Counted from the stretch's first letter, positions 22,460-57,309 are shown. The stretch: DNA of 64,000 nt from Acidobacteriota bacterium (GCA_045862895.1 BTUO01000006.1:1-64000); one strand, 5' to 3'. Translations and numbers: made by a program. The notes: generated by a model from the letters alone, not told the origin.

Positions 22460-23071
22460 ATGCGGAACCCACGCTGGTGGTCGCTGGTTTGGCTCGTCGG
22501 CATCTCGGTATCTCCTTCGGCGGCGCAGAATGCGCTGCTCAACCCTGACTTCGGCGTGGACGTCGCCGGCTGGCAGACCTTTCTCGGCAGCCTCGATCTC
22601 GACCCGATGCACGAAGACGCCGACGGCTGTCCCGAATCGTCGAGCGGCCGGCTGGTCGCCGCATCGCAGTCCGGCCCCGAGTTTCTCGGTCTGCTGCAGG
22701 CGACCGACTCGTGCCTCGACGTCGCTCCCCTCCAGGAGGTATGGATCGACGCGACGCTCTGGCTGCGCAGCGCCGGATTCGTCGCGGTCGGCTTGATCCT
22801 CCTCGAGTACACGGACGATGCCTGTACGACGTTCCTCGATCCGCCGGTCCAGACGGCGATCGAGCTCTCCGTCGGCTCGACTCCGGAGGCAGAGCATCTG
22901 TCGGTCACGACTTCGGCGGGAGTCGAGTCGGTCGGCCTGCAGATCGATACGGGGGCGATCGTCCCGAACGCTCTCCTGCTCGACCGGCTCTATCTCGGCA
23001 CCGCCGAGCGGGTTTTCGCGGACGACTTCGAAGGCGGCTCGACCTGTCGCTGGAGCGCCGGAGCGATCTGA
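22460..23071 (+). CDS. secreted CBM4_9-like jelly-roll domain protein, tagged
   Basis: Signal peptide MRNPRWWSLVWLVGISVSPSAAQ. The mature protein starts NALLNPDFGVDVAGWQ and ends ...VFADDFEGGSTCRWSAGAI. Confidence 0.6.
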   Translation: MRNPRWWSLVWLVGISVSPSAAQNALLNPDFGVDVAGWQTFLGSLDLDPMHEDADGCPESSSGRLVAASQSGPEFLGLLQATDSCLDVAPLQEVWIDATLWLRSAGFVAVGLILLEYTDDACTTFLDPPVQTAIELSVGSTPEAEHLSVTTSAGVESVGLQIDTGAIVPNALLLDRLYLGTAERVFADDFEGGSTCRWSAGAI

Positions 23072-23503
23072 CGGAAGCCGGGGCGACGAGAAACTGCGTG
23101 CACGGCCATCGCAGGGCGGGGGGTCGCAGCTGCGAAGTCTCCGGTCAAGACGCCGCCGGACTCTGAATCGCGAAGGAGCGGTGGAACGGTTGGCCGTTGC
23201 CAGTTCGTCAGCGGCTGCCCATGGCGCCAGCCCCTAATCCGACGAAGCGCCCGAATCGGTTTCCTCGCGGGTCCCCGTCGAGTAGGTAGTCCTGGAGAAC
23301 GGGCAGTCGGTAGGGCAGTCACGATCTCCTGCTCGCGCCAACGGAAGGGTCTCGTGGACGCCAGCCGGAGGTCGGACTTTCAGCCGGAATGGTTCAACAG
23401 TCGCCGATCGTGAACAGAGCCGGTATGCGAGCGAGTAGCGTGGGTCTTTCGTTTCGAGTAGCGTCCATGACGTCGAGAGATCCTCGCACGGAGGAGGTGG
23501 ATC

Positions 23504-24778
23504 TTGCTCCGATTGCATCCATGTGCAAGTCGCATCGCAGCCTTCTCTTGCCTCGCGGGTGCTGTAGGCAGTATTTCGAAGGGCCAGCTACTCGGGCCCG
23601 AGTTTCAAGTGAATACGTACACCACTAGCTCGCAAGAACGGCCGGCAGTTGCCGCGATCGGGGATGAGAGCTTCGTGGTCGTGTGGGAAAGCTACGGCCA
23701 GGACGGTTGGCACCTGGGGGTTTTCGGACAGCGCTTCGGCGACGGAGCGCAGCCAATCGGAAGCGAATTTCAAGTCAACTCGATGACGGTCGGCAGGCAG
23801 TTCCGAGTCGCGGTGGCCGCCGAACCGAGCGGCGAGTTCGTGGTGGCCTGGGAGAGCTACTACGCGAACGACACGGATGTCTTCGCTCGTCGTTTCGATT
23901 CCGAGGGCAACCCAGAAGGGGAGGAGTTCCAGGTCAACAGCCGAACATCGGGTGGGCACTGCTGCGTCGACGTTCATCGGGATGGCCAGGGCGGCTTTGT
24001 TGCTCTCTGGGAGAACACTCTCTATCCCTCTCCATCCGAGATTCTCTTCCGTCGATTCGATTCCAGCGGCGTACCAATGGGCGAAGAGGTCTCCGTTGCA
24101 GGCGGCCATCCGTTGATTGGATCGCCGCGTGCCTCGATGCTCGGAATAGAAGGCTTGGCGGTGGTTTGGGAAGACCGCCCAGGGACCGATTGGGACGTGC
24201 TGGCCCGTCGCTTGGATCCGACGGGACAGCCATTGGGTGAAGCGTTCGTCGTCAGCAGTCAAGCGACGTACAATCAAAGTTCTCCGAGTGTCGGAGCGGA
24301 CTCTGAGGGAAACTTCGTCGTGGTCTGGAACTCGACGATCGGTGGTACGGAGCAAGGCTTCGGGAGGCGATTCAGTTCGACAGGCAGCGCTCTGGGAGAC
24401 GAGTTCGCGATCAACTCCTTCTACCCCTGGAGCGAATGGGAGATAGACCCTGTCGTGGCAGTTGATGGTTCGGGATCCTTCCTGGTCACGTGGCTACCTT
24501 GGGGCGTGGACGAAATCCTTGGTCAGCGGTTTCGTCCGACCGGCGCTCCGGCGGGAAACCGATTTCAAATCAACGAGTACACGCCCGGGCATCAGATGCA
24601 TTCCGCCGTTGCGGCGAACGGCGCCGGGGACTTCGTGATCGTATGGGACAGCTACGGCCAAGACGGTTCACGACACGGAGTGTGGGGGAGACGACTCCGG
24701 ATGCCGTACTTCGCTGACGGCTTCGAATCCGCGGATGTCTGCGAATGGAGTGCGACATTGGGCGGTGACTGCGTGTGA
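23504..24778 (+). CDS. secreted protein of seven ~53-aa repeats (EFQVN-Y-T-G-Q...FVVVW-S-GQDG...GVFGRRF), probable beta-propeller, tagged
   Basis: TTG start plus signal peptide. Seven tandem repeats are readable in the translation. Ends ...MPYFADGFESADVCEWSATLGGDCV. Confidence 0.7.
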   Translation: MLRLHPCASRIAAFSCLAGAVGSISKGQLLGPEFQVNTYTTSSQERPAVAAIGDESFVVVWESYGQDGWHLGVFGQRFGDGAQPIGSEFQVNSMTVGRQFRVAVAAEPSGEFVVAWESYYANDTDVFARRFDSEGNPEGEEFQVNSRTSGGHCCVDVHRDGQGGFVALWENTLYPSPSEILFRRFDSSGVPMGEEVSVAGGHPLIGSPRASMLGIEGLAVVWEDRPGTDWDVLARRLDPTGQPLGEAFVVSSQATYNQSSPSVGADSEGNFVVVWNSTIGGTEQGFGRRFSSTGSALGDEFAINSFYPWSEWEIDPVVAVDGSGSFLVTWLPWGVDEILGQRFRPTGAPAGNRFQINEYTPGHQMHSAVAANGAGDFVIVWDSYGQDGSRHGVWGRRLRMPYFADGFESADVCEWSATLGGDCV

Positions 24779-24936
24779 CCACGGGCTCCTTCGACATCGC
24801 CGTAGTCGCTGACGGACGTCCTACGTCGCATCCTGCAACCGTCGAGGCGTGGCAGAGTCAGGTTCGCGTCAAGGGCCTTCGGTCAGCGTCCTCCTGAGTA
24901 TTCTCGGGGGCCCCAGCGGACGCCCCGGGGATCGAT

Positions 24937-25063
24937 GGTGGCAGCTCCCGATTCTCCGGAGCTCTGGAGTCCCTCTCCTCCAGGGATGTCCTGGATGCCA
25001 GGATTCTGGGAGGTGGGAGCTGTCACCCTTTCAAGGAAATCGGTGGCTGCCCCCGATTCTTCG
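24937..25063 (+). repeat. composite of three motif copies (GGTGGCAGCTCCC-GATTCTCCGG; inverse GGGAGCTGTCACC; GGTGGCTGCCCCC-GATTCTTCG)
   Basis: Read directly, immediately upstream of the 25076 GTG start. Confidence 0.7.
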
Positions 25064-25075
25064 TAGGATCGGAGG

Positions 25076-26224: not shown

Positions 26225-26488
26225 AGGCGTCGTGGCCGATCCGCGGAAGCGGACCGGATCTCGAGCTCGCCGGCCTCTCGCACGACTTCCGGGAATCCGC
26301 GACCGGCGGCGTTCCATCCCGCGGCGGGGACTGTCCGAACGACCGAGGGGTGCGCGGTGCCGAAGCCCTCCCCGGCGAGGCGGGCCCCTGCCGCCCCCGC
26401 GGGGCGTGGCGGTGCTCGGCAGAGTCTTCATTCTGTCGAAAGCGACTGGGATCCAGGGGGGGGCGAGGGCACGAAGGAGACCGGCTCA

Positions 26489-27921
26489 TGCGCACGGGCA
26501 TCGCAGCGTCCACGTCCTCGATCCTCACCGCCTTCGTCCTCGTCGGCGCGGCGGGCGCCGAGCTGACTCCCGAGTGGATGACGCGGGTCGCCGTCGGCAA
26601 CTCGCTCGCCGCCGGACCGCAAGGACTGGTCGTCCGCGCCGACGGGGTCTCCTTCCAGACCGGCACCACGGGCTCGTCCTCGAACACCGACGTGACGACC
26701 CAGGCGTTCGACACCGACGGTGCGTCGCTCTGGTCGCACACCTTCGACGGTCCCGCCTCCTGGCACGACCAGGCGCGCGGGATCGCGCTCGGCGTCGACG
26801 GCCACGTCTACGTCACCGGCAACACGCCGGGTCCCGGCAGCTACGCCAACCTGCTGGTGCTCGAGTACGACGCGGCGACCGGCGCCCTGGTCGACAGCAT
26901 CCAGCTCGCCGCCGGACAGTGGACGTCGGAACACGGCGCTTCGATCGCGGTCGATGCCGAGGGCAACATCTACGTCGGCGGCGGCACGGTCGGCGACGGC
27001 GGCGACGCGTTGATCGTGTCGTTCGACGCCGAAGGCGACCTGCGCTGGCGCGAGACCTGGGACGGACCGGCGGAGTCGCCCTATTCCGGAGACACCGTCC
27101 TGGAGGTGCTGCTCGCGCCCGACGGCGACCTCGTGACCCTGATCCACGGGGTGATGGGCTCGCTGCATCCCGACTACGTCGTGCGCAAGTACGCCCGGGC
27201 CGACGGCGCGCTGCGCTGGCACTCGACCTGGGGCGTCAATGGTGGCGACTATCCGCGCGATCTCGAGCTCGACGCGCAAGGCGACGTCTACGTCACCGGC
27301 ACCGGCATCGACTTCGTCGACAAGTACTCGACGGTCAAGCTGCGCGGCAGCGACGGCGCGCTGCTCTGGCAGGGCTACGACACGTACGACCATCACAACT
27401 CGGCGACCGCCCTCGCGCTCGACGGCAGCGGCGGCGTCTACGTGACCGGCTCGGTCGACCCGGACGGCGATCGCTCCAACTCGAACGACAACTTCTTCAC
27501 CATCAAGCGCGACGCCGCGACCGGCGAGCACCTGTGGAGCCACCTCTACGGCGCCAACTGCCTGTACTGCTTCGACGCGCCGGCCGACGTCGCCGCCGAT
27601 CCGGCGGGGCACGTCTTCGTCGCGGGCCGGACCTCGTCGCCGCCTTACGCTGCGGACGCCATCCTGCTCGTACTGGATGCCGAGACCGGGCTGGAGCTGG
27701 ATCGCGGCATCGTGGCCGGCGCCAGCCCGAGCGAGGGCGTCGCTCCCGGCATCCTCCTGTTCGACGCCGACTTCGACCTCTACGACGGCGGCAGCTCGAC
27801 CGACTACGACACCGGCCAGATCCAGATGGGCGTCACGAAATGGACCTCGCTCGTCGATCCGATCCTCCGGGACGGGTTCGACGACGGCAGCACCGCGGCG
27901 TGGAGCGCGGTCGTTCCCTGA
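26489..27921 (+). CDS. secreted SBBP-repeat beta-propeller protein, tagged
   Basis: Signal peptide. Repeated D-x-x-G-N/H-V/I-Y-V-T/G-G blades. Ends ...ILRDGFDDGSTAAWSAVVP. Confidence 0.75.
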
Positions 27922-27984
27922 CCCCGGAAGCGCTCCCGCGACTGCGGTAGTCTGCGCCGCCATGACGGCCGGGCGCGACGCCAG

Positions 27985-32339: not shown

Positions 32340-33590
32340 ATGTCCACGACTTTGCGCACCCTCGCCGCCGCCCTGACGACGACCGTCCTGCTCGCCGCGC
32401 CAGCGGTCGCGGTCAAACGCCGCGCCTTCGTGACCTCGGTCTCGGGCAACGGCAACCTCAACTCCTGGCCGGACGCCGGAGGGCTGTTCGCTCTCGCCGC
32501 CGGTGACGCCATCTGTCGGGCGCGGGCGAACGCCGCCGGCCTGCCGTTCGCGAACTCCTATCGCGTCTGGCTGTCGACGGCGACGACCGACGCCTACTGC
32601 CACGTCCAGGGGCAGACCGGAGAGAAGGCCACCGGCTGCTCCGGCTCCCCGCTGCCGCGGGGTCCCTGGTACCGGGTCGACGGGACCACGGCGTTCGCGG
32701 CGGACCTGGACGAGCTGACCGGCAACCTCCACGAGGTGTACACCGGAGTCCTCCAGGAGGAGGACGGTACGGTGCTGACGGCGACCGACCCCTCCGGTTA
32801 CTGGACCGGCACGTCGGCGAGCGGGGAGGGAGTGTCCGAGACCTGCTCGAGCTGGGTCGTGGCGGCGGCCGACGTCCAGGGCCGCACCGGCACGGCGCTG
32901 TCGAGCGCGGTGCGCTGGACGGAGGCCTTCTCGACGGCCTGCGACCAGGATCGCCGCCTGCTCTGTCTCGAGCCCGGGCTCAGCGACCCGGTGCCTGTTG
33001 TTCCATGGCAGCCAGCGGCGCTCGCGTTCGTGACCAGCATGACGGGCAACGGCAATCTCGGGCAGTGGCCGGTCGCGGGCGACGCCACCGGAATCGAGGC
33101 CGGTGACGAGATCTGCTGCGCCCTGGCCGCTATCGAGCACCTGCCGGCGCCGGAGTCGTTCGTCGCCTGGCTCTCGGACTCGCAGACCGACGCGCGCGAC
33201 CGCCTGACTCTCGCCGGAGTACCCTATCGGCGGCTGGATCATCGGGTCGTCGCGACCTCGAAGGCCGACCTCGTCGACGGCACCAATCTGGACAGCCTGC
33301 ACGTCGACGAGACCGGGAGCTACGTCGACGACTTCCTGGTCGTCGCCACGGGGACGCTCGCCGACGGTACCTGGGAGGGGTCGAGCTGCGACGACTGGAC
33401 CGCGTCGCCTTCGACCAACGTCCGGAGCGGCTACGCCTCTTCGCTGAACGGCGGGACCTGGACCGCCGGCGTCGGCTCCGCCTGCATCACCAGCAAGCGC
33501 CTCTACTGCTTCTCGAACGTGGTCACGATCTTCTGGGACGGTTTCGAGCTCACGGGAGACGCCAGCCGCTGGTCGAGCGCCAGCCCGTGA
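32340..33590 (+). CDS. secreted protein with two DUF1554-like repeats (FVTS-x-GNGNL...W), tagged
   Basis: Signal peptide. Internal duplication readable (AFVTSVSGNGNLNSWPDAGG... and AFVTSMTGNGNLGQWPVAGD...). Ends ...FWDGFELTGDASRWSSASP. Confidence 0.7.
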   Translation: MSTTLRTLAAALTTTVLLAAPAVAVKRRAFVTSVSGNGNLNSWPDAGGLFALAAGDAICRARANAAGLPFANSYRVWLSTATTDAYCHVQGQTGEKATGCSGSPLPRGPWYRVDGTTAFAADLDELTGNLHEVYTGVLQEEDGTVLTATDPSGYWTGTSASGEGVSETCSSWVVAAADVQGRTGTALSSAVRWTEAFSTACDQDRRLLCLEPGLSDPVPVVPWQPAALAFVTSMTGNGNLGQWPVAGDATGIEAGDEICCALAAIEHLPAPESFVAWLSDSQTDARDRLTLAGVPYRRLDHRVVATSKADLVDGTNLDSLHVDETGSYVDDFLVVATGTLADGTWEGSSCDDWTASPSTNVRSGYASSLNGGTWTAGVGSACITSKRLYCFSNVVTIFWDGFELTGDASRWSSASP

Positions 33591-38904: not shown

Positions 38905-41213
38905 TCAGAAGCGCAGCACGGCCTCGAGCCCGAGCTGACGCGGCTCGTTGGTCATGCCGGTCAGGTTGTTGAAGTCGATGCCGTTCTGGACGATCTCCTC
39001 GTCGAGCAGGTTGCGCGCGAAGGCGGCGAGCTCCCAGGTGCCGGCGGGGAACAGGTAGCCGAAGCGCAGACCGAGCTCGAGCGAATCGCCGTTGAACTCC
39101 TCGGACTCATAGAGGAAGAAGCTCTTCTCGCTCTGGTACGCCCAGTCGACGCTGCCCGAAAAGACGCCGTCGCCGACCGGCCGGCGGTAGTCGACGATGC
39201 CGTTGAAGATCCACTCGGGCGCGTGCGGCAGCGGGTTACCGTCGACGCGCGCCAGCCCCCCCACGATCGGGTCGAGCACCGTGCAGCCGCCGCCGCACGG
39301 CGCCACCGCGAGGTTCGGGTCGTCGATCTCGGTGTGGTTCCAGCTGGTGCCGAGCGTGATCAGCCAGCCCGAGCCCGGCATCCAGTCGAGATCGGCCTCG
39401 AATCCGTAGCCGTTGGTGGTGTCGGCGTTGAGCAGGGTGGCGGTGTTGAACTGGCCACCGACGGCGACCAGCTGCTGGCCGTCGACCTCGAAGGTGTAGC
39501 CGGCGAAGTTGAGTCGGAGTCGCCGATCGAGCAGCTCGGTCTTCACGCCCGCCTCGATCGAGAAGATCTCTTCCTCGTCGGCGATCGATACGCAGTTGGT
39601 CGCCGGGTTGGTGCCGCCTTCGAAGTCGGCGCAGAACAGGATGCGACCCTGGATCGAAGGGGCACGGAACCCGGTGCCGACGCGGCCGTAGAGGTTGACG
39701 TTGTCGTCGAGCGCGTAGGTCGCCGAGAGATCCCAGGTGACGAGGTCGGCATCGGTCGAGGCGCGGATCGGCGCGACGGTCGGCGTCTGGAAGGTCGGAT
39801 CGGGGCGCTCGGCGGCGAAGTCCTTCTCGTCGGTGGTGTAGCGCAGGCCGGCCTTGAGCGTCCAATCTTCGGTCGGCCGCCAGTCGACCGAGCCGAACAG
39901 TGCCCACGACTGTGCGTCCTGGGTCTGGAACGCGAAGCCGTCCTGCGGATTGCCGGGAGCGAGGCTGTTGAAGCTGTAGGTTTCGGCGGTGAGGCTCTCG
40001 TCGAACCAGAAGAAGCCCGCGAGCCAGTCCCAGTCGCCGCCGTCGTCGCTCGCCAGGCGCAGCTCCTGCGTGAACTGGTCGAGGTCCGGAATGCCGTCGG
40101 CGCTCTCGGACGGGAACGGGATGAATCCGGGACCGAACGGCGGCGCGAACGATGCGCCGAAGCCGCCGTCGATGTCGCCTCGGCTGAACATGTTCGTGAT
40201 CGTCTCGTAGCCGGTCACCGAGGTGAGCGTCGCGTCGCCGAAGTCGTGCTCGAGGCGCAGGACCGCGCCCTGCGACTCGATCTTCTGTTCGTTGCGGCCG
40301 TCCTGGAAGACCTCGTCCTGCTCGAAGCCGGTGACCAGGTCGTCCTCGCCCGACTTGAGGATGTTGGCGCGGAAGATGCGCGCGGTGCCGTCGACGTCCC
40401 AGCCGTGGAGGTTGAGCAGGGCGGCGAAGTCGTCGTTGGGCTGCCACGCGAACTGCAGCCGCCAGGCCCAGGTGTCGTGGCCGCCGAGCGCGTCGTCCTC
40501 GCCGGTGAATCGGTTGTCGACCCAGTCGGCCTGCGACTGGTAGAGGACCGACAGGCGCGCCGAGAGGGATTCGGTCAGGCCGCCGCCGACCGCGGCCTCG
40601 AGGTCGATGCTGTCGAAGCTGCCGTAGGAGGCGCGCACGCTGCCGTCGAACTCCGAGGTCGGCTTGCGGGTGTCGAACTTGACGATGCCGGCCGGGGTGT
40701 TGCGCCCGAACAGCGACCCCTGCGGCCCGCGCAGGACCTCGACGCCGTCGAGGTCGAAGAGCGGCATGCCCTTGACGACGGGATTCTCGAGCACGACCTC
40801 GTCGACGATCATCGAGACCGGCTGCGAGGCGTTGAGGTCGAAATCGGTGTTGCCGAGGCCGCGGATGTAGAAGCGCGGGAAGGCGCGGCCGAACGACGAT
40901 TCGAGGGTCAGGCTCGGTACCCGGCCCGCGAGGAACTTGACGTCGGCGCCGCCGGCGGTCAGCAGGTCGAGCTTCTCGGCGTCGAGCGCGGTGATCGAGA
41001 CCGGCACCTCCTGGAGGTTCTCCTCGCGCTTCTGGGCGGTGACGACGATCTCGTCGAGGACGACCGCCGGCTCGCCCTCCGGCGCGGCCTGGGTGGCGGG
41101 CGTCTCCGGCGGACTCTCCTGGGCGCCCGCCGGCACCTGGGCGACGCCGAGCAGGCCGATGGCGACGGCGATCATCGAGCGGACGAACGCGGCGGGGGTC
41201 GAGTGGACGACCA
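38905..41213 (-). CDS. TonB-dependent outer-membrane receptor
   Basis: Signal peptide. Plug region with DEIVVTAQKREENLQEVPVSITAL. The terminal beta-strand ends in RF. Confidence 0.85.
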
Positions 41214-41306
41214 TGGAATCCTCCTCGGAAAAGTGGCGGCAGTGTAGCACCGGGGTCGCGCGGCGACGACGTGGCGGCCTCGACCTCGCGAGGCTACACT
41301 CGCGTG

Positions 41307-44985: not shown

Positions 44986-47565
44986 ATGAGAAACAACGTG
45001 AACGCGCGTCGAGTGGCGCTCCTCGGGCTCGCCGGACTGCTGGCTTTCGGGCTCGGGCCGGCCGCAGCAGGTACCGCGCCGCAGATGCCTCCAAACGACA
45101 CCGCACCGGCGCCGCTGTGGCTCGAGGCGTCGGCGACGCAGGTGGTCGAGGGCGAGAGCTTCGAAATCGACGGGCACCTCGGTTTCGCGGTGCCCTACGA
45201 ACTGACCGTCGAGCTGAAGTTCGGCGGCGACGTCGGCGGCAAGGACGTCGCCCCGGCGCCCGCGACCCTGGTCTTCGCCAAGGGGGAGCTCTTCGCCTCG
45301 GCGACCCTGACGGCCACCGAGGATGGCGAGATCGAGGCGGTCGAGACTCTGGTCCTCGCCGTCGACGACCCGCGCGTCGTGCTCCGACAGAAGCAGGCCG
45401 TCGAGATCGCAGACTCGGGCACGGTCCTCACGACCACGGGCTCGACGGTGCCCTCCCGGTTCCCGTGCGGCGAGAACCCGAAGCTCTCGATCGCTACCGA
45501 CACCAAGTTCGTCGCCGAGGGCGGCGGCGCGGCGACGGTGACGCTGACGCTCGCCGAAGCGGGCTGCACCGATCTCTCCTATCCGATCGTCGTCGCGGGC
45601 GACGCGGATGCTTCGGAGATCCTGGTCTCGGCCGGCAGCTTCGAGCTCCCGATGGGAGTCACCTCCGCTTCGATCGTCGTTTCGGCGGTCGACGACGCCA
45701 GCGACGAGCCACTCGAGGCGATCGAGCTGCGGCTGGCGCCGACGCCGGAATCCGACCTCGAGGTGGGCGTCACCCTCAACCTTCTCGACAACGACGCGGA
45801 CATCGCGCTCGCGAACCTCTCGGGTCCGCCACGGCTGGTCGCCGGCGAGCGCGTGCAGTTCCAGATCGCGGTGATCAACCCCGGACACAAGGAGCTGACT
45901 TCGGTGCGTCTGGTCGAGACTCCGATGGCGGGCCTGGTCGACGTCGAGTGGTTCTGCTTCGGCAAGAGCGGCGCCGAGTGCCCGGAGAAGGGCGTCGGAT
46001 TCGTCGACCTCTCGGCGTCGATGCCGGCCTTCTCGGCGATCGTCGTGCTGGTCGACGGCCTGGTGTCGCCGGCGCAGCGCGACGCGCTGAACCACCAAGC
46101 CTCGGTGACGATCGACGACGGCACGTTGTCCGATCCCAACCCGGGCGACAACTCCGCCTTCGCCACCCACGCCGTCGAGGTCGTCGCCGACCTGGCGCTC
46201 GAGCTCGCCGTCGGTCCGTGGGATCCCTCGGCCGCTGAGCCCACGCTCACCTACACCGCCACCGTGCGCAACCTCGGCCCCTCGGACGCCTCGGGCGCCG
46301 AGCTGACCAGCCCGCTCGCGGCGCATCTCGCCTGGTCGGACGGCGATCCGGATTGCCTCGCGACGCCGGAATCCGTGAGTTGCACGGTCGGCGCGCTGGC
46401 CGCCGGTCAGTCGATCGGCCTCGACCTGGTGCTCTCGGTCCTCGAGCCCTATCCGTCCTACACCCTTCAGGAGGTCTGGCTGTCGCCGAGCGATCCCGAT
46501 CCCTCGCCCAAGAACGACGAGGCGTTCCTCGACACCAAGCTCGACATCGTCGCTCCGACGATCGAGGAGATCGTCGCTCTCGGCGATCGCTCGAACACGC
46601 CCCTGGGTGCCTGCAGTCAGCTCGTCGAGACTCCGGTCCGCCTGAACGTCCGCTTCGACGAACCGATGGTGGCCGCCGAGGGCGACGTCCGCGACGGATT
46701 CCGCCTCTACCGCCCGGGTGCCGACGGTGATTTCGAGCTCGAGTCCTGTGGAGACGGCGGCTTCGCCTTGCCCGTGACCGACGACATCGAGGTCCAGATC
46801 CTCGGCGTGCAGTGGAACGAGGAGGCGACGGCGGTCGAGCTGTCGCTCCGCCAGGACCGCGCGATCGACGTCCCGGGCCCGTACCGACTTCTGGTCTGCG
46901 GCTCGCTCTCCGATCGCGGCGACAATCCGCTCGACGGCGACGGCGACGGCACGGGTGGCGACGACGCGATCGTCGGCTACCGGGTCGACGCGGGCAACCT
47001 GGTTCGCAACGGCCATTTCGACTGCGGCCTCGACGGCTGGACCGCCGTCGCGCCGTCGCCGGAAGACTGGACGCTCGGCGAAGACGCGAGCGGCAGCTCG
47101 ATCTCGCGCTCGGCCCGGATCGACAACTCGGCGGCCTGGCCGTCGGTCGGCGCCGGACAGTGCGTGGAGACCGGAGGGGCCAGCCAGATGTCCCTCGAGC
47201 TTCGCCATCGGCTCTCGCCGGTCGTTCCCGACAAGGGCGAAGAGATCGTCTCCGGCGGACTGGTCGAGGCGTCGGTCGACGTCGCTTGCAGCTTCTACGC
47301 CGCGACGAGCTGCACCGAAGCCCTCGCGGGGGCGACCGGGATGGCGTCGCAGTCCGGTAGGACCGCGCCGACGGGCTCGTCGTGGTCGACCTACGGCGTG
47401 AAGCTCCAGGTTCCCTGGGGCGCGCAGTCGGTGCTCTGCACGGTCGCCGCCACGGGCGAGCTCCTCCCCTTCGTGCTCGAGATCGACCAGGTCCGGATGC
47501 TGGCGGTGGAGTGGAGCCCCACGGCCGGCCCGGTGGACGAAATCGGAGGAGCGTCCCTCGACTGA
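44986..47565 (+). CDS. large secreted DUF11/Calx-beta-like repeat protein with C-terminal CBM4_9-like domain
   Basis: RBS GGAGGAAGG. Signal peptide. DUF11-type repeats (...LDLVLSVLEPYPSYTLQEV...). The C-terminal ~185 aa start NGHFDCGLDGWTAVAP. Confidence 0.75.
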   Translation: MRNNVNARRVALLGLAGLLAFGLGPAAAGTAPQMPPNDTAPAPLWLEASATQVVEGESFEIDGHLGFAVPYELTVELKFGGDVGGKDVAPAPATLVFAKGELFASATLTATEDGEIEAVETLVLAVDDPRVVLRQKQAVEIADSGTVLTTTGSTVPSRFPCGENPKLSIATDTKFVAEGGGAATVTLTLAEAGCTDLSYPIVVAGDADASEILVSAGSFELPMGVTSASIVVSAVDDASDEPLEAIELRLAPTPESDLEVGVTLNLLDNDADIALANLSGPPRLVAGERVQFQIAVINPGHKELTSVRLVETPMAGLVDVEWFCFGKSGAECPEKGVGFVDLSASMPAFSAIVVLVDGLVSPAQRDALNHQASVTIDDGTLSDPNPGDNSAFATHAVEVVADLALELAVGPWDPSAAEPTLTYTATVRNLGPSDASGAELTSPLAAHLAWSDGDPDCLATPESVSCTVGALAAGQSIGLDLVLSVLEPYPSYTLQEVWLSPSDPDPSPKNDEAFLDTKLDIVAPTIEEIVALGDRSNTPLGACSQLVETPVRLNVRFDEPMVAAEGDVRDGFRLYRPGADGDFELESCGDGGFALPVTDDIEVQILGVQWNEEATAVELSLRQDRAIDVPGPYRLLVCGSLSDRGDNPLDGDGDGTGGDDAIVGYRVDAGNLVRNGHFDCGLDGWTAVAPSPEDWTLGEDASGSSISRSARIDNSAAWPSVGAGQCVETGGASQMSLELRHRLSPVVPDKGEEIVSGGLVEASVDVACSFYAATSCTEALAGATGMASQSGRTAPTGSSWSTYGVKLQVPWGAQSVLCTVAATGELLPFVLEIDQVRMLAVEWSPTAGPVDEIGGASLD

Positions 47566-47938: not shown

Positions 47939-49462
47939 ATGAGAATCGCCAACCTCGCCGCCGTCGCCCTCGCCGGATCGATTGCCGTACTCGTGCCGTC
48001 GAGCCCGGTTCTCGCGGGCAAGACCATCGGGGCTTCGCCCTCGACCGCGCTCGCCCTGCGCTCGGGCACGAGCGACTGGCTCGGAGCCGACCTCGCGGTC
48101 TCGCTCGGTGCTTCCGCGTGGGATCCCGAGGTTTCGAGCACGCTCGTCTACACCGTCACCGTCACGAACGTCGGCAAGGCCGACGGCTCCTGGGCGACCG
48201 TGCGCAGCCCGCTCGGAGATCACGTGGAGTGGATCGCCGGGGACGACGACTGCCGCTCGATCGGAGACGCGGTGATCTGTGACATCGCGCCGCTCGCCGG
48301 CGGCGAGTCGAGGCAACTCCAGTTCGAGCTCGAGGTCTTCGAGCCCTATCCGCTGGAGACGATCCAGGAAGTGAAGCTGACGGCGACCGATCCCGACCCG
48401 ACGACGACGAACAACTTCGCCCAGATCAGGACGGTTCTCGACGTAGAGGCTCCGGTCGTCGAGATGGTGCGGGCTCGGTACGGCGAATCCGGTCGGAGGC
48501 TCCGCGCGTGTACGCAGCTCGCCGCCGTTCCGAGCCGGCTCGAGGTGACCTTCAGCGAAGCGATGAAGACGGGTCCGACCCCGCGCTTCGTCGACGCCGT
48601 TTCGAGCTACCGCCTGGTGCGGCCCGGAGCGGATGGCGTCTTCGACGAGCTCTCCTGCGCGCAGGCGCGCGCGACCGGTTTCCCGTCCGACGACGTCGAC
48701 GTCAAGATCCTGGCCGTCGCCTGGGACGAGGAGAACCTGACGGCCGAGCTCGCGCTCGACTCGATCTCCAGCGTGTTCGATGGCTCGGGGCACTGGCGGC
48801 TGATCGCCTGCGGCGGCCTGACGGACGTCGTCGGCAACGCGCTCGACGGCGACGGCGACGGCGAGGGCGGCGACGACGCGAAGATCGATTTCCGGGTCGA
48901 CGTGGGCAACCTGATCGACAACGGCCACTTCGACTGCAACGTCGATCACTGGATCTCGGTGGGTGCCGAGCCCGAAGCGTTCGTGCTCGGCGCGGACAGC
49001 GAGCGGAGCGCGCTGTCGCACGCGGGCCGGATCGAGGGCGCGGCCGGCACCTTCACGGTCGGTGCCGGACAGTGCGTGGTGGGACCGGCGCCCGGCGCCT
49101 ACCAGTTCTCGCTCCGGCATCGCCTGTCGCCGTCCTTCGGCGAGCCCGAGTTCGCACCGGTGGCGGGAGCCTGGGTCGGCGTGGCCTGCACCCTCTACGA
49201 GTCGTCGACCTGCGACGGCATGACCCAGCTCGTCGGCGGCGACGTGTCGTCCTCGGTGCCGGTTCCCGGCGACGGGACGTGGGGGAAGTTGGCCGAGAAT
49301 CTCGAGATCCCGGAGAACACGGGCTCGATGCTCTGCACGGTCGCGGCCAGCAGCGAGGGCGAGGCGCTGACCTTCGAGTTCGACGGTATGAGGCTGGCGC
49401 CCGTCGCGGTGGAAAGCAGTACGTTCGGAGGCGGATCGACGTCGATGAATTCGGTGCGCTGA
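47939..49462 (+). CDS. paralog of the 44986-47565 gene (DUF11 repeat + CBM4_9-like domain)
   Basis: RBS GGAGG. Signal peptide. Collinear with paralog 1 (same ...FELEVFEPYP...DGDGDGEGGDDA...NGHFDCNVDHW... blocks). Confidence 0.75.
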   Translation: MRIANLAAVALAGSIAVLVPSSPVLAGKTIGASPSTALALRSGTSDWLGADLAVSLGASAWDPEVSSTLVYTVTVTNVGKADGSWATVRSPLGDHVEWIAGDDDCRSIGDAVICDIAPLAGGESRQLQFELEVFEPYPLETIQEVKLTATDPDPTTTNNFAQIRTVLDVEAPVVEMVRARYGESGRRLRACTQLAAVPSRLEVTFSEAMKTGPTPRFVDAVSSYRLVRPGADGVFDELSCAQARATGFPSDDVDVKILAVAWDEENLTAELALDSISSVFDGSGHWRLIACGGLTDVVGNALDGDGDGEGGDDAKIDFRVDVGNLIDNGHFDCNVDHWISVGAEPEAFVLGADSERSALSHAGRIEGAAGTFTVGAGQCVVGPAPGAYQFSLRHRLSPSFGEPEFAPVAGAWVGVACTLYESSTCDGMTQLVGGDVSSSVPVPGDGTWGKLAENLEIPENTGSMLCTVAASSEGEALTFEFDGMRLAPVAVESSTFGGGSTSMNSVR

Positions 49463-49541: not shown

Positions 49542-49554
49542 CCGGGGGGGCCGA

Positions 49555-51219: not shown

Positions 51220-51319
51220 CGGCGACCTCCTCGGCGCGGGCGACTGTAACCGAAACGACGACGGCCCGCCCCCGTCGAGGGGCGGGCCGTCTCCACGGCG
51301 GTCCGGACGAAGCGGGAGC

Positions 51320-52852
51320 TCAGGGCTGCGCGGCGCTCCACTCCGTGAGGTCGTTCTCCTCGAAATCGGAGACGAACGGCATGCCGGTCAGGGCGAGCTG
51401 GACCGCGTCGAGCGCGTCGATGCGGCCAGCGCCGAAGGTGTTGTTCGGGAAGATCCCGGCGCTGACGCCGCACGCCCCGCCGAAGGCCGGTTCGAAAGCG
51501 GTGTCGCGGATGATCTGTTCGATCTCGTCGACCTCGCCGGCGAGCTCGGGCTTGGCCGAGATCAGGAGCGCGACCAGCCCGGCGACGTGCGGGCCGGCCA
51601 TCGAAGTGCCGGAGAACGAGGCGTAGCCGGTTCCCGGAATCGACGAGCGGACGCCGGAGCCCGGTGCCGAGATGTCCGGCTTCATCCGATTCGAGCCGTC
51701 GACGGTCACCGGGCCGCGGCTCGAGAACGAGGAGATCGAATCGGTGCTGGTCGTCGAGCCGACCGAGAAGGAGGCGTCGTAGATGGCGGCCGGAGTGTTC
51801 ACGGTGCTGCACGAGGAGCCGGAGTTGCCGGCCGAGACCACGACCACGATGCCGGCCGCGCGGGTGTTCTCGACGACCTGCTGGAGAATGTCGGGAGCGA
51901 CGCACCCTTCCGAGGGCGGGCAGCTCCACGAGTTGTTGATGACGTGGGGCGCCATCGCGGGGTTCGGATTCTGGCCGGCCAGGTCGGTCGGCGCGATGAA
52001 CCACTCGAAGCACTCCGAGTAGGTCGTGGGGGTGCCGTTGCCCTGGTCCATGTTGCGGCAGCCGATCCAGCGGGCGCCCGGTGCCATGCCGATCTGATTG
52101 ACACCACCGTCGTCGCCGACCATCGTCCCCATGGTGTGCGTCCCGTGCGAATCGTCGTCGCAGGGGACGGTCGAGTTCGCGCCGCAGACCCCGCCCCCCG
52201 AGTGGATCGAATCGTGCCAGTGGTAGTCGTGCGCGGCGGACGAGCCGGTCCAGCCGCGGTACATGTCGCGCAGGGCGGGATGCTCCCAGTCGTAGCCGGT
52301 GTCCTGCCCGCCGATCACGGCGCCCTGGCCGTCGAATCCCAAGGCCCAGACGTCGTCGGCGTTGACCTTGAGGATGTTCCATTCGATCGCCAGCGGCGCC
52401 AGCGGATCGCCGGCCTCGACGCCGTCCTCCACGGGCGCGACGAGGCTCATGCGGGGATTGGCCTCCAGGCGAGCGACCTCCTCGCGCAACGCCAGTCGTT
52501 CGGCGAGCGCGAGGTCGCCCTCGACTGCGAGGAAGTTGGCGACCCAGAAGGAGCGGTGCGGGACCTTGTCGCGCTCGAGCTCGACGATCAGGTCGGCCTG
52601 CATGCGGGCCGCGTGCGCGCTCAGCGTCTCGAAGACGTAGCGCCCCTTGGCCTCCTTGCCGCGGATCGAGGCGGCGGCGGAGAGGTCGGCCTGGTTGGCG
52701 AGGACGACGAGCATCTCGACCTTGCCGTCGGCGGCGTCGGCCATCGCGCGCACCAGCGCCGGGTCGATCTTCGGCGAGAGCTCGGCGGCGGCCGGAATCG
52801 GCGTCGCGAGCGCGGCCAGGGCGAGAGCGGTCACGGCGGAAACGCGTAGCAC
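51320..52852 (-). CDS. secreted S8 subtilisin-family serine protease, tagged
   Basis: Signal plus propeptide. Catalytic D (GQDTGYD), H (DDDSHGTHT) and S (SGTSMAGPH). Ends ...PFVSDFEENDLTEWSAAQP. Confidence 0.85.
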   Translation of the reverse strand: MLRVSAVTALALAALATPIPAAAELSPKIDPALVRAMADAADGKVEMLVVLANQADLSAAASIRGKEAKGRYVFETLSAHAARMQADLIVELERDKVPHRSFWVANFLAVEGDLALAERLALREEVARLEANPRMSLVAPVEDGVEAGDPLAPLAIEWNILKVNADDVWALGFDGQGAVIGGQDTGYDWEHPALRDMYRGWTGSSAAHDYHWHDSIHSGGGVCGANSTVPCDDDSHGTHTMGTMVGDDGGVNQIGMAPGARWIGCRNMDQGNGTPTTYSECFEWFIAPTDLAGQNPNPAMAPHVINNSWSCPPSEGCVAPDILQQVVENTRAAGIVVVVSAGNSGSSCSTVNTPAAIYDASFSVGSTTSTDSISSFSSRGPVTVDGSNRMKPDISAPGSGVRSSIPGTGYASFSGTSMAGPHVAGLVALLISAKPELAGEVDEIEQIIRDTAFEPAFGGACGVSAGIFPNNTFGAGRIDALDAVQLALTGMPFVSDFEENDLTEWSAAQP

Positions 52853-52930
52853 TTGAAAACCTCCGATCGTTCGGGGGGTGGGGACCGGGGCATTCTAGCG
52901 CGCCGGACCTCGTCGCGCTATCGTCCGGCA

Positions 52931-53599
52931 GTGGCCAACGGCCGGGCGCTACAGCGCTGGACCCTCGCCGAGGAGGTCGCGCACGCGGTCTCGCACGGTG
53001 TCGGGGTCGCGCTCGCGATCGGCGGCCTGGCGACACTGGTGACGCTCGCCGCCTTGCGCGGCGACGCCTGGCACGTCGCCTCCTCAGCGATCTTCGGCAC
53101 CACGCTGGTCCTGCTCTACGGCGCTTCGACCGTCTACCACTCGATCCCGGCGTGGGTCCGCTTCCGCCGCACCAAGCGGATCCTGCGCATCCTCGACCAC
53201 TCGGCGATCTACCTGGCCATCGCCGGCACCTACACGCCGTTCACCCTCGGCCCGCTGCGCGGCCCGTGGGGCTGGGCGCTGTTCGGCGTCGTGTGGGGCG
53301 GAGCGGTCGTCGGCATCGTCTTCAAGATCGTCGCCGTCGAGCGCTACCCGGTTTTCTCGACGGCGCTCTACGCGGTGCTCGGTTGGTGCGTGGTCGTCGC
53401 CTTCGAACCGCTGCTCGAGGCGCTGGCGCCCGGCGGCATCGCGCTGCTCTTCGCCGGCGGCCTCTGCTACACCATCGGCATCGGTTTCTACGCCTGGACC
53501 AGCCTGCGCTGGAGCCACTTCGTCTGGCACCTGTTCGTGCTCGCGGGCAGCGTGCTGCACTACCTCGCCGTCCTGCTCTACGTCCTGCCGCGCGGCTGA
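52931..53599 (+). CDS. hemolysin III / PAQR family membrane protein
   Basis: Probable GTG start. EEVAHAVSHGVG, seven TM helices and an H..H motif. Confidence 0.75.
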   Translation: MANGRALQRWTLAEEVAHAVSHGVGVALAIGGLATLVTLAALRGDAWHVASSAIFGTTLVLLYGASTVYHSIPAWVRFRRTKRILRILDHSAIYLAIAGTYTPFTLGPLRGPWGWALFGVVWGGAVVGIVFKIVAVERYPVFSTALYAVLGWCVVVAFEPLLEALAPGGIALLFAGGLCYTIGIGFYAWTSLRWSHFVWHLFVLAGSVLHYLAVLLYVLPRG

Positions 53600-53758
53600 G
53601 GCGAGTGGTTCCGGCCCGCGAAAGACGCCGGGGCAGCCGCTAGATCCGGGCCGGATTTCGCTGGAGCTTCCTGATCCGGCCGATCTTTCCAAGAGGAAGG
53701 TGGCTTTTCAGAGCTGAGAGGCGCTCCTGCCTTGACGTCGCGCAGTGGCCTGAGAGCT

Positions 53759-55081
53759 TCAATCGGTCCACTCGTGACGGAAGGGGCCGGGTGCTGTCGC
53801 CGACCAGCGCGTCGTGTCGCCCGACTCGAAACCGTCGAGCAGCAGGCCGAATCCGCGGAACCGGCGCGCGTAGAGATCCACACTGGCGTCTCCGCCCTCG
53901 TACCACTCTCCGACCAGAACGGGATTTGAGTCGACGTCGAAGTCGGCAACCGGAACACCGAGATTCCAGGAGGAAGCTAGATCGAAAGGTGAGCCGACGA
54001 GTTCTCCTTGGGGAGAGTAGAGCGATCCTCTGACGAGATCGTCCGCGAGACGGGAAAGGAGCAGCCAGCTTCCGTCACGAGCGCGCTCGACGGAAACGTC
54101 GTCTGGTGCGGTGCCCAGGTCGACATCCGCCAGGATCTCTCCCGACGGCGAACAAAGCCGTGCTCGGTACCAAGTAGCGTGGAATATTTCGTTTCCCCAC
54201 GAGACGACGGCCGAGCCGTCGGAGCCCGCGCCGAGCCGCAAGCCGATGATCCCGTAGTCGTCATAGCCTTCGGCGACGTGGATCTCCTCCCCGAGTTCCC
54301 CGTCGGCTTCGAAGGCTCGGACGTAGACGCCGAACCCGGGGCCCGGTTGGCGCGCATACCCCAGGATGAACTGGCCAGGTCCGAAGGCATCGACGTCGAG
54401 CCCACCGAGACGAGAATAGGGTCCGGTGGCGATCGGAAACGCGGGGCCCACGGGCTGGCCGCTTGCTCCCAGTTTCCGCCCGAAGATCGCCATGCCACCG
54501 TCATGGGGCGCTAGCCACACCGCGACGTATCCACCCGCCGGGTCGGCGGCCACGTCCGGTGCCGTGGGCGCGGGCTCGTCGGGCTGGTGAATCGCGAAAG
54601 GCGGGCCGATCGGAGATCCATCCTCGGTGAAGGCACGTCCAAGGACGTTGTGGACAATCTGATCCTTGCTGTGATTCCAGACGACGACGAAACCGTGATC
54701 GTCCGTCGCGACCTTCGGGTAGGTGTAGTGATTTCGTGGGCCGGCATCGACGCGAAACTCCGGCCCCACCGGATCGCCGCTGGTCGAAAAGTAGCGGGCG
54801 AAGACGCCATGATCGACCGGCGGTTGATCGAGAGTCTCCCAGACGACGAGAAACCGCCCGTCGGACATTCGCGCCACGTCGGGCGCGATCTGCAAGCCCT
54901 CGGTGGTCGTGTTGACCAACTGGGCGGGATCGATCGGGGTGATCTGCGCGCGTGCGGATTCGGCGACCGCTCCGACGATCACCGCGGAACCGGCAATCCA
55001 CAGGTTGAGGCGCCGAGGAAGAATCCTGACCGGAGCTGTCGTCTTCCAGAGGGAAAGCGAGGGGCCCGCTTTGTCGACCAC
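53759..55081 (-). CDS. secreted repeat (beta-propeller-like) protein related to 23504-24778, tagged
   Basis: GTG start. Degenerate FxVxW...GxFGRxF repeats. The tail ...LLLDGFESGDTTRWSATAPGPFRHEWTD carries a 10-aa extension. Confidence 0.6.
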   Translation of the reverse strand: MVDKAGPSLSLWKTTAPVRILPRRLNLWIAGSAVIVGAVAESARAQITPIDPAQLVNTTTEGLQIAPDVARMSDGRFLVVWETLDQPPVDHGVFARYFSTSGDPVGPEFRVDAGPRNHYTYPKVATDDHGFVVVWNHSKDQIVHNVLGRAFTEDGSPIGPPFAIHQPDEPAPTAPDVAADPAGGYVAVWLAPHDGGMAIFGRKLGASGQPVGPAFPIATGPYSRLGGLDVDAFGPGQFILGYARQPGPGFGVYVRAFEADGELGEEIHVAEGYDDYGIIGLRLGAGSDGSAVVSWGNEIFHATWYRARLCSPSGEILADVDLGTAPDDVSVERARDGSWLLLSRLADDLVRGSLYSPQGELVGSPFDLASSWNLGVPVADFDVDSNPVLVGEWYEGGDASVDLYARRFRGFGLLLDGFESGDTTRWSATAPGPFRHEWTD

Positions 55082-55259
55082 ATATCGACCTCTCCTTAGA
55101 CAATTGCTGGCGGAAGGAGCATACTCCTTACCGTTCGAACAATCCGTTTCCTGAGCGAAGAGAATGGCGTGGAATGATCTCCTGCTGATCGGCCGGACGT
55201 CATAGACGATTGGAAAGGACCGAATCGGGACACCTTCAGAGTCGCAAGGGAGGTACCAG

Positions 55260-56615
55260 ATGCTCGACCGCCGCAGCTTCCTGTCGTCCGTCGCCGCCGG
55301 GGCGGCCGCGCTGGTCGCGGCGCCGACGGCTTGCGCTGCCGAGCGCGACCAACCCGCCGCCGCCGCGGGACCGCTCGTCGGTCCCGAAGGTGTCGTCGAC
55401 TGGGAGCGCGTCCGCGCCGAGTTCGACCTCGACCCCGACTGGCTCCACTTCGGCAGTTTCTTCCTGGTGTCGCACCCGCGGCCGGTGCGCGTCGCGATCG
55501 AGCGCTGGCGGCGCGAGCTCGACCGCAATCCGCTGGCGCTCGAGCACCTGCTGTTCGACGGGGCGAATCCGGACAACCCGGTCGCGGCGGTCAAGCGCGC
55601 TCTCGCGCGATACCTCGGCGCGCGAGAGGAGGAGATCGCGCTCACCCCCAACACCACGACCGGCCTCGCCCTGGTCTACAACGGGCTGGCGATCGCTCCG
55701 GGCGAGGAGATCCTGACCACCGAGCACGATCACTACGTCCACCACGAGTCGATCCGCTTCGCGGCCGAGAAGTCGGGAGCGACCGTGCGCTTCGTCGCGC
55801 TCCACGACGGCGCCGCGCGGGCGAGCGCCGACCAGATCGTGGCGCGTCTGCGCGGCGCGATTCGCCCCGAGACACGCGCGCTCGGCGTCACCTGGGTGCA
55901 CTCGTCGAGCGGCCTCAAGCTGCCGATCCCGGCGATCGCCGCGATGGTCGCCGAGGTCAACGCCGGCCGCGCGCCGCGCGAGCGCTGCCTGCTGGTGGTC
56001 GACGGCGTCCACGGCTTCGGCGTCGAGGACGTCGACGCCGCCGCGATGGGTGCCGACTTCTTCGTCGCCGGAACCCACAAGTGGCTGTTCGGCCCGCGCG
56101 GCACCGGCGTGGTCTGGGGCAGGCCCGAGGCGTGGCCGCGGGTGCGGCCGACGATCCCTTCGTTCGACCTCTCGGGGGAGATGTGGTCCGCGTGGGTCGA
56201 GCGCAGGCCGTTGCCGTCGACGCGGGCGAACTTCGTGTCGCCCGGCGGCTTCGTTGCCTACGAGCACCAGTTCGCCGTGGCCGACGCGGTCGCCTTCCAC
56301 GAAGCGATCGGAAGAGCGCGGATCGCCGCGCGCCTGGCCGACCTCAACGGTCGCGTCCGGCACGGCCTGGCGGCGATCCCCGGGGTCACCGTCCACACGC
56401 CGCCCGATCCGGCGCTCGCCGCCGGCATCACCTGCTTCGAGGTGGCGGGGCTGGCGCCGGAGGCGGTCGTGGCGCGGCTCGCCGAGCGGCGCATCCACGC
56501 CACGACCTCGCCTTACGCGGTCTCCTACGCGCGCCTCGCGGCCGGCATCATGAACCGACCCGACGAGATCGACGCCGCGCTCGCCGCGGTCGCCGAGCTG
56601 GCGCGCGCGGCCTGA
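55260..56615 (+). CDS. class V aminotransferase (PLP-dependent, cysteine desulfurase / IPN-epimerase-like) with Tat signal
   Basis: Signal MLDRRSFLSSVAAGAAALVAAPTACA has the twin-Arg motif. TGVVWG...HKWLFGPRG is PLP-lysine region. Confidence 0.75.
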   Translation: MLDRRSFLSSVAAGAAALVAAPTACAAERDQPAAAAGPLVGPEGVVDWERVRAEFDLDPDWLHFGSFFLVSHPRPVRVAIERWRRELDRNPLALEHLLFDGANPDNPVAAVKRALARYLGAREEEIALTPNTTTGLALVYNGLAIAPGEEILTTEHDHYVHHESIRFAAEKSGATVRFVALHDGAARASADQIVARLRGAIRPETRALGVTWVHSSSGLKLPIPAIAAMVAEVNAGRAPRERCLLVVDGVHGFGVEDVDAAAMGADFFVAGTHKWLFGPRGTGVVWGRPEAWPRVRPTIPSFDLSGEMWSAWVERRPLPSTRANFVSPGGFVAYEHQFAVADAVAFHEAIGRARIAARLADLNGRVRHGLAAIPGVTVHTPPDPALAAGITCFEVAGLAPEAVVARLAERRIHATTSPYAVSYARLAAGIMNRPDEIDAALAAVAELARAA

Positions 56616-56619
56616 GCGC

Positions 56620-57309
56620 TCAGGGCGCCGTCGCCGACCAGCCCGACGTCGAGCCGTTCTCGAAGCCGTGGATCAACAGCGCGTCGCAGCGGGTGGCCTC
56701 GGGGCAGAAGTAGGCGCGATCGAAATGGAAGGCGATCGAGCCGCCCATCACCGACTTGCGCGCGCGTAGTCCGACGATCGCGCTGCGCGCTCCGGCCGGA
56801 GCCGGAACGGTGAGGAAGTCCGCGTGCTGCCACCCCGTGCCGTCGGTCGACGAGGTCGCCCCAAAGGCCCACTGGTGCAGCGAGGATCCGGTGCAGTTGT
56901 CGCCGTCGAGCCACATCACGCTGAGGCCCGAGGACCCGGCACTCTGGGCGCCCGCGGCGAGCCGGACGTCGGCTCCGACGAGAAAACGCTGGCCGACGTA
57001 GCCGGAGAGGCCGCTCACGCACTGCTTCGCGATGACGGTGATCCCTTCGGCCGAAGTGTCGTTGGTCAGCAGCAGCGAGCCCGACGCCGGGCTGCCGCCC
57101 TGGTCGATCGCGGAGTAGCCGATCGAGCCGACGCCGACGTTGTAGAGCGACCAGCCCGAAGTCGAGCCGTTGAACCAGCCGTTGCTGAGCAGCCCGTCGT
57201 AAGCGGCCCGGGCCGGAACGGCCGCCGCGGCGAGCGCGAACAGGGCGAGGGCGATCCGCCCGTTCGAGCGTCGAGCACGCCCCGAGGGGCGCTGAGGAAA
57301 GAGGGTCAT
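56620..57309 (-). CDS. secreted CBM4_9-like jelly-roll domain protein, tagged
   Basis: RBS AAGGAG. Signal peptide. The mature N-terminus ...LLSNGWFNGSTSGWS and the C-terminus ...LIHGFENGSTSGWSATAP are near-copies of each other. Confidence 0.65.
   Translation of the reverse strand: MTLFPQRPSGRARRSNGRIALALFALAAAAVPARAAYDGLLSNGWFNGSTSGWSLYNVGVGSIGYSAIDQGGSPASGSLLLTNDTSAEGITVIAKQCVSGLSGYVGQRFLVGADVRLAAGAQSAGSSGLSVMWLDGDNCTGSSLHQWAFGATSSTDGTGWQHADFLTVPAPAGARSAIVGLRARKSVMGGSIAFHFDRAYFCPEATRCDALLIHGFENGSTSGWSATAP

Follow-up and report, generated by a model that had tools for sequence, protein, structure and literature searches.

What might one short sequence do at the C-terminus of many unrelated exported proteins? 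This question is raised by a 64,000-nucleotide stretch of DNA from an Acidobacteriota bacterium (GCA_045862895.1, BTUO01000006.1:1-64000; the whole stretch is called the window here), in which nine of the approximately 51 genes, about 18% or about one sixth, encode proteins with a common tail of about 19 residues, referred to as the tag. The original prediction, made from the window sequence, was that this tag copies the first strand of a jelly-roll domain present in four of the window proteins, and that it may act as a donor strand that docks into such a domain on another protein. From our sequence comparisons, the tag is the beta-hairpin with which a jelly-roll domain opens, orphaned from the rest of that domain, and its role is probably in docking or sorting.

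The tag and the proteins that carry it

In the window, the tag follows the consensus h-F-x-D-G-F-E-x-G-D-x-S-x-W-S-x-x-x-P, which is directly followed by the stop codon. A DNA pattern for its core, F-[DE]-x-G-x4-W, gave six matches in the window versus 0.13 expected, and none of 100 shuffles reached six. All six matches lie at the C-termini of open reading frames (ORFs), with about five more residues before the stop codon. The six tagged proteins listed by the original prediction were confirmed in this way, but the list was incomplete: a position-specific scoring matrix (PSSM) built from tags outside the window added three further C-terminal copies, in proteins I, J and K. The tags are located as follows.

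22166-22222, plus strand: tag of protein A (metallophosphoesterase, 20900-22225), VFADGFEAGDGSAWDPPSP, then stop
23012-23068, plus strand: tag of protein B (22460-23071), VFADDFEGGSTCRWSAGAI, then stop
27862-27918, plus strand: tag of protein C (SBBP/PQQ-like beta-propeller, 26488-27921), ILRDGFDDGSTAAWSAVVP, then stop
53789-53845, minus strand: tag of protein D (unknown function, 53759-55081), LLLDGFESGDTTRWSATAP
56623-56679, minus strand: tag of protein E (56620-57309), LLIHGFENGSTSGWSATAP, then stop
59391-59447, plus strand: tag of protein F (M43 metallopeptidase, 58491-59450), LFLDDFELGDLSRWSSTSP, then stop
14330-14386, minus strand: tag of protein I (secreted protein of 281 residues and unknown function, 14327-15172), VYCDGFESASTAIWSAVAP, then stop; PSSM scan
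51323-51379, minus strand: degenerate tag of protein J (S8 subtilase, 51320-52852), PFVSDFEENDLTEWSAAQP, then stop; PSSM scan
33528-33587, plus strand: tag with a one-residue insertion, protein K (DUF1554-like, 32340-33590), IFWDGFELTGDASRWSSASP, then stop; PSSM scan

Unlike tags with the usual exact 16-residue spacing, the tag of protein D is followed by nine further residues, GPFRHEWTD, before the stop codon (53759-53788, minus strand). All nine proteins have a signal-peptide-like N-terminus. The bodies that precede the tag show no relationship to one another; they comprise a phosphoesterase, M43 and S8 peptidases, a propeller, modules resembling carbohydrate-binding modules (CBM-like) and proteins of unknown function.

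The tag is not confined to this genome. When 185,579 species genomes were scanned for D-G-F-E-[ST]-G-D-x3-W-[ST], at least 118 loci were obtained, with 129 matches listed, and the following counts refer to these listed matches. The loci belong overwhelmingly to Thermoanaerobaculia, Holophagae, Multivoradales and unclassified Acidobacteriota, with a few from Myxococcota and other groups. Counted from the Asp, the stop comes after 12-19 codons in 102 of the 129 matches (for 101 of these, the locus includes the stop codon) and after exactly 16 in 73. Several positions that the search pattern leaves free are kept in the tags: a Leu, Ile or Val at -3, Phe at -2 (69 of 73), Thr at +7 (55 of 73), Ala at +9 (51 of 73), Val at +14 (50 of 73) and Pro at +15 (65 of 73). 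The module that ends all nine window proteins can be written [LIV]-F-x-D-G-F-E-x-G-D-T-S-x-W-S-x-T-V-P-COOH. Where the N-terminus of a tagged ORF is visible, it resembles a signal peptide in 64 of 81 cases. FG-GAP, S8, beta-helix, GSDH, cytochrome c, BNR, GH8 and other domains are found in 54 tagged ORFs; the cargo is varied and of the kind expected for exoproteins.

When the six window tails were used in an exhaustive hmmsearch, 1,402 protein clusters (representatives) were retrieved at E<=1e-3. Single-copy matches of this hidden Markov model (HMM) sit at exact C-termini, and multi-copy matches are openers of tandem domains of about 220 residues. At least eight proteins (P0044, P0057, P0061, P0063, P0085, P0108, P0117 and P0130) carry tandem tags at the C-terminus with a period of about 21 residues, and an S8 peptidase from a low-G+C organism (P0031) has two internal tag-type copies near its N-terminus, at residues ~145-200. 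Because tandem and internal copies exist, the tag unit can presumably work without a free C-terminus. Pfam and NCBIfam gave no significant family match to the whole proteins or to the isolated tails, a homologue search from the tail alignment returned only three fragments, and a literature search found no description of the tag.

Could such tails be non-functional leftovers of decayed C-terminal jelly rolls, or a chance or compositional motif? Degenerate or extended copies do occur (J, K, the nine-residue extension of D and a possible relic in protein H, see below). However, six occurrences are far above the 0.13 expected, and both sequence and length of the tag are strongly conserved across classes and in hundreds of unrelated proteins. 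Furthermore, the tag of B is nearly invariant in eight homologues, in which the bodies have diverged to 36% identity. The tag of E is likewise almost invariant in the E homologues. This explanation is highly improbable, and the conservation data effectively refute it.

The tag as a detached opener of a jelly-roll domain

Tag-like sequences are also found away from C-termini. Among the listed genome-scan matches, the motif is non-terminal in 18 that have at least 150 residues downstream, and in the best 150 of the 1,402 HMM matches it occurs internally 154 times, where it opens ConA-like domains of about 200 residues. Internal motifs are typically spaced about 180-300 residues apart with a mode of ~220, the domain that they open measures ~190-290 residues, and the motif-opened domains are often arranged in tandem in giant proteins of Chloroflexota or Actinomycetota type. 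These openers share with the tags the hydrophobic residue at -3 and Phe at -2 (18 of 18), both outside the search pattern. The tag is read as an orphaned opener because the same motif, including positions left unconstrained, opens complete jelly rolls in other phyla. The openers differ from the tags in that +7 is Phe, Leu, Val or Tyr in 15 of 18 and the V-P end is missing.

The opener regions match the start of two Pfam profiles, CBM_4_9 (positions 2-47, i.e., approximately the first 45 profile positions) and Polysacc_lyase PF14099 (positions 1-40). Over nearly their full length, the exact-motif domains resemble ConA-like jelly rolls, in particular PF14099, below the gathering threshold of 29.9 bits: matches at E about 4e-5 covered positions 1-181, the best score was 23.4 bits (E 6e-5, likewise positions 1-181), and four of 12 members matched at E<0.1. 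Whole motif-opened domains also match Laminin_G_3 (PF13385) below threshold, and a PDB sequence search with the full-domain profile found no relative. The closest full-length relatives of the tag therefore appear to belong to a ConA-like, PF14099-like family, of which the window contains only the first ~19 residues. In a Fimbriimonas metagenome-assembled genome (MAG; locus L029), two tandem genes each encode a signal peptide, the opener, a jelly roll of about 200 residues and a PEP-CTERM anchor; in this case, the motif belongs to a complete domain with a sorting signal of the classical kind.

In the original prediction, the tag was matched to the first strand of the four domains of about 170 residues in proteins B, E, G and H.

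22529-22999, plus strand: CBM-like jelly-roll domain of B, opener NALLNPDFGVDVAGWQ at 22529-22576, last strand LLLDRLYLG
56704-57195, minus strand: CBM-like jelly-roll domain of E, opener GLLSNGWFNGSTSGWSL at 57145-57195
46996-47502, plus strand: C-terminal CBM-like jelly-roll domain of the DUF11 protein G (44986-47565), opener NLVRNGHFDCGLDGWTA
48908-49399, plus strand: C-terminal CBM-like jelly-roll domain of the DUF11 protein H (47939-49462), opener NLIDNGHFDCNVDHWIS
49418-49459, plus strand: possible decayed tag at the C-terminus of H, STFGGGSTSMNSVR, then stop; it aligns to the F-E-G-G-S-T core of the B tag and has lost the Trp

These domains are real and related to each other, as had been claimed: the B and E families align with an hhalign probability of 86% (E 5e-6), E and H share 25% identity over 204 residues, and G and H share 41%. 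In an alignment of 16 sequences (A5), the invariant positions are N43, F46, W53, C97, C139, S176 and D197 (E numbering), that is N, F and W in the opener, two Cys and an Asp in the last strand. The two Cys (in E at about 57019-57021 and 56893-56895, minus strand) are invariant in all 16 sequences and may form a conserved disulfide, as would suit a location outside the cytoplasm.

The assignment to CBM4/9/22-type jelly rolls was borne out for the fold and not for the profile. Like CBM4, CBM9, CBM16 and CBM22 modules (Pfam CBM_4_9), the window domains open with N-x-x-F-...-W and close with an x-D-x-x-x-L strand. AlphaFold2 (AF2) models of B (9 sequences) and E (16 sequences merged from four families) are all-beta, although of low confidence (pLDDT 54 and 59), and the galactose-binding-domain-like or CBM4-9-22 jelly-roll fold is supported by fold matches for both domains. 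In contrast, none of B, E, G and H reached the gathering threshold of CBM_4_9 (PF02018, 25.9 bits), and neither this model nor any other in Pfam and NCBIfam matched them at E<=1; the first 50 residues of G taken separately gave a weak CBM_4_9 match (positions 1-31, 13.3 bits, E 0.11). The conserved Cys pair also sets the window domains apart, a glycoside hydrolase context was not found among the annotated window genes, and a PDB sequence search with the B-family profile returned nothing relevant.

How closely do the four openers resemble the tag? The tag has the general form of these four CBM4/9-like openers. Only the E opener is closely tag-like: GLLSNGWFNGSTSGWSL and the E tag ALLIHGFENGSTSGWSA are identical at 11 of 17 positions, including NGSTSGWS, and the E opener is the best non-self match to the E tag among 98,996 17-mer windows. 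It also scores 13.9 bits with the PSSM, the best non-C-terminal one of 16,260 15-mers, and is the only window opener that scores as tag-like. The near identity of the two ends of E, pointed out in the original prediction, was corroborated, and the pairing is conserved in homologues. The openers of B, G and H share only N-x-x-F-x6-W with the tag, with an F-to-W spacing of 7 versus 8, and are not tag-like in ungapped comparison. The proposal that the tag is a jelly-roll first strand placed alone at C-termini is thus upheld by the motif-opened ConA-like domains, but the four window domains are not its closest relatives. The likeness of tag and opener itself grows with the number of homologues aligned, because flanking positions outside the search pattern agree.

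In the DUF11 proteins, the tag may have been lost. The end of G (47503-47562, plus strand) has no tag, the last 14 residues of H align with the tag core, and a relative of H with 34% identity (P0023) has a CBM-like domain that ends in a canonical tag; together, the relic in H and the tag of P0023 suggest tag loss in the G and H copies of this genome. P0023 also contains a tag-like insert inside its jelly roll.

The similar ends of E allow for another role, in which the tag would serve its own protein or other copies of it: it would fold onto the edge of its own sheet or swap with the N-terminal strand of a neighbour, so that B- and E-type proteins would form head-to-tail oligomers or filaments by strand exchange. 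The conserved pairing in E fits such a role. The tag lies only about 8-15 residues past the last jelly-roll strand in B, E and P0023, and in jelly-roll topology the first and last strands are usually adjacent. However, most of the cargo (propellers, peptidases, the phosphoesterase, cytochromes) has no jelly roll to pair with, the B opener and tag are only weakly similar, and the tag is disordered in the AF2 models. Self-pairing or swapping is therefore improbable as the function of the tag.

Docking, sorting and known C-terminal modules

We tentatively favour, at somewhat below an even chance, that the tag is an orphan opener hairpin from a truncated jelly roll and docks exported proteins onto a partner by strand complementation. 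A C-terminal or tandem jelly-roll domain would have been truncated just past its first hairpin, which later became established as an independent module. Once the protein has been exported by Sec, its exposed hairpin would dock by beta-strand complementation into a partner with a matching unsatisfied sheet edge, most simply a jelly-roll protein without its own opener. Many exoproteins could be tethered or routed via one common receptor in this way, in functional likeness to dockerin-cohesin pairs or to donor-strand complementation in pili.

The original prediction named the four window domains as acceptors to be modelled. This part was not supported: they are poor acceptor candidates, each with its first strand in place, and no jelly roll that lacks strand 1 was detected in the window. 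Candidate pairs of tagged protein and opener-less jelly roll were observed elsewhere. In a Polyangiaceae MAG (L077; minus strand, at about 2200-4080 of the locus), LIFEDGFESGDTSSWSGTQ forms the end of a secreted c-type cytochrome, directly before the stop codon. A gene 210 bp downstream encodes a signal peptide of its own and a mature protein that aligned to the ConA-like domain from column 23. Because the alignment runs from column 23 onward, this second protein seems to lack exactly the opener. A metagenome search with it found three near-identical copies. In L121 (126-1553), a different tagged haem protein is encoded directly upstream of a 98%-identical opener-less copy, and the distance between the haem gene and the opener-less gene is about 210-230 bp in these two loci. 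By alignment, each pair together reads as a naturally split domain. The pairs are circumstantial support for docking, from another phylum and another jelly-roll family, and with them strand complementation is plausible, albeit unproven.

Several observations weigh against docking. The split pairs are confined to one closely related contig set in another phylum, and in a further copy (L119) the upstream gene is unrelated and untagged; it may encode a protein like isocitrate dehydrogenase kinase/phosphatase (AceK), as read from its sequence. Opener-less body HMMs of the ConA-like type and of the B/E/G/H type, run against six-frame ORFs, detected no opener-less acceptor, either in the window or among some 100 loci of 8 kb from Acidobacteriota. 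Clustering of ORFs of at least 150 residues from the 118 loci revealed no recurrent gene family beside the tagged genes. The tags favour Thr at +7 versus a hydrophobic residue in cis openers, and because these residues differ, identical packing of tag and cis opener is disfavoured. The AF2 models say nothing on insertion or docking, since the tag and strand 1 are both below pLDDT 50 in B and E. Finally, a constant 16 residues up to the stop and a Pro at the very end would suit a signal that is read from a free C-terminus better than a plain strand.

Indeed, a general sorting signal would account equally well for the constant length, the Pro at the end, Thr at +7 and the very high fraction of cargo. 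Given that about 18% of the genes carry the tag, docking and a general pathway of export or processing are equally plausible. The tag would then be a linear C-terminal sorting or processing signal that is read, and maybe cleaved, by dedicated outer-membrane export or attachment machinery. Its role would be analogous to that of the C-terminal domain (CTD) in type IX secretion (T9SS) with PorU or of PEP-CTERM with exosortase, the likeness to openers would reflect ancestry only, and no split domain would be complemented. The constant stop distance with the conserved Val-Pro end supports such a signal, as does the number and diversity of the cargo (nine window genes; 1,402 clusters). The lack of a conserved neighbour is what one would expect of machinery with a single locus in another part of the genome, and Thr at +7 in place of a core hydrophobic residue sets the tags apart as a class. 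On the other hand, the tag has no transmembrane helix, basic tail or folded CTD of ~80 residues, tandem and internal copies indicate that a free C-terminus is not always needed, the split pairs of L077 and L121 are left unexplained, and no candidate machinery was identified. A sorting signal of this kind is quite possible, if on balance doubtful. A remnant of a terminal domain that was turned into a recognition signal, the second option of the original prediction, fits the data equally well as docking.

The tag can be compared with the C-terminal sorting signals of PEP-CTERM/exosortase (PMC1569441), GlyGly-CTERM/rhombosortase (PMC3237569) and the T9SS CTD (PMC4804311). Like these, it is a short conserved C-terminal element on many unrelated Sec-exported proteins of particular lineages, with many paralogous cargoes per genome. 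The hallmarks of PEP-CTERM, GlyGly-CTERM, MYXO-CTERM and LPXTG signals are absent, as the tag ends in W-S-x-T-V-P directly before the stop without a hydrophobic stretch or a basic tail, and the sorting-signal models of Pfam and NCBIfam did not match the whole tagged proteins or the isolated tails. The T9SS CTD is a folded Ig-like beta-sandwich of ~70-100 residues in Bacteroidota with Por machinery, whereas the tag has ~19 residues and an Acidobacteriota host; T9SS CTD models did not match the tagged window proteins.

Among docking systems, donor-strand complementation in chaperone-usher pili resembles our preferred reading in that a short terminal beta-strand would complete the incomplete beta-sandwich of another protein. 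In type V pili (Mfa/Fim), the donor strand is C-terminal (PMC4789730), as is the tag, and archaeal threads offer an example of donor-strand complementation and exchange (PMC9715654). In L077 and L121, a predicted incomplete sandwich is encoded beside the putative donors. The differences are a jelly roll in place of an Ig-like pilin and donors on many unrelated enzymes instead of pilins. Moreover, pilus-type assembly factors (chaperone and usher, maturation protease) were not seen among the 30 of ~51 window genes annotated with Pfam or among the neighbour clusters of the 118 loci. Dockerin-cohesin pairs of the cellulosome are similar insofar as a small C-terminal module on diverse exoenzymes would dock on a beta-sandwich receptor, and tandem duplication occurs in both. 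However, the tag is a predicted beta-hairpin without the Ca-binding EF-hand-like repeat, and no scaffoldin with repeated receptors was found.

More speculatively, Thermoanaerobaculia, Holophagae and related Acidobacteriota might possess a so far undescribed split-jelly-roll docking system, in which the hairpins complete an opener-less receptor on the cell surface or on the export route. We consider this rather unlikely in its full extent. It would involve possibly hundreds of tagged Sec-exported enzymes per genome (extrapolated from nine of ~51 genes) and would be a non-covalent equivalent of cohesin-dockerin or T9SS-type cargo attachment; the Polyangiaceae pairs of L077 and L121 would represent this principle in its smallest form, one donor to one acceptor. 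In soil and sediment, Acidobacteriota belong to the most abundant bacteria and, to our knowledge, their protein secretion and display are poorly understood. With at least 1,400 clusters, the tag would be borne by a large share of the exoproteins of entire classes. The tag HMM is an immediate handle for annotation and opens a search for the receptor or machinery by phylogenetic profiling. If docking is indeed complementation of a split jelly roll, it would represent a new natural assembly by fragment complementation, with a short peptide/receptor pair that could be engineered.

Gene context of the tagged proteins

The window belongs to a diderm Acidobacteriota MAG with a G+C content of 71%; a diderm cell is indicated by a TonB-dependent receptor encoded at 38905-41250 (minus strand). 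A protein identical to B is annotated as hypothetical in an Acidobacteriota MAG (AMXMBFR36). Since spurious ORFs are frequent at this G+C content, the window genes were picked by third-position G+C. The genes adjoining the tagged ones in the window are ordinary housekeeping genes. Across the 118 loci, the only recurrent untagged family near tags is a Ser/Thr kinase (13 of 118, e.g., L102:3923 onward), the recurrence of which is probably incidental and reflects its abundance in these genomes.

Three further ideas about the tag were discarded. Stop-codon read-through, or a split gene that continues after the tag, does not agree with the downstream genes, which are unrelated and have their own signal peptides. 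A glycosylation sequon was rejected as the tag has no N-x-S/T, and an outer membrane protein beta-signal as it has no terminal aromatic residue.

Between 23100 and 25000, third-position G+C indicates no confident gene; an ORF of 424 residues at 23504-24778 (plus strand) has no Pfam match and fails the coding-bias filter. In the 52-56 kb region and in the 3' part of the gene for protein D, G+C and third-position G+C (0.63-0.83) are lower than in the rest of the window.

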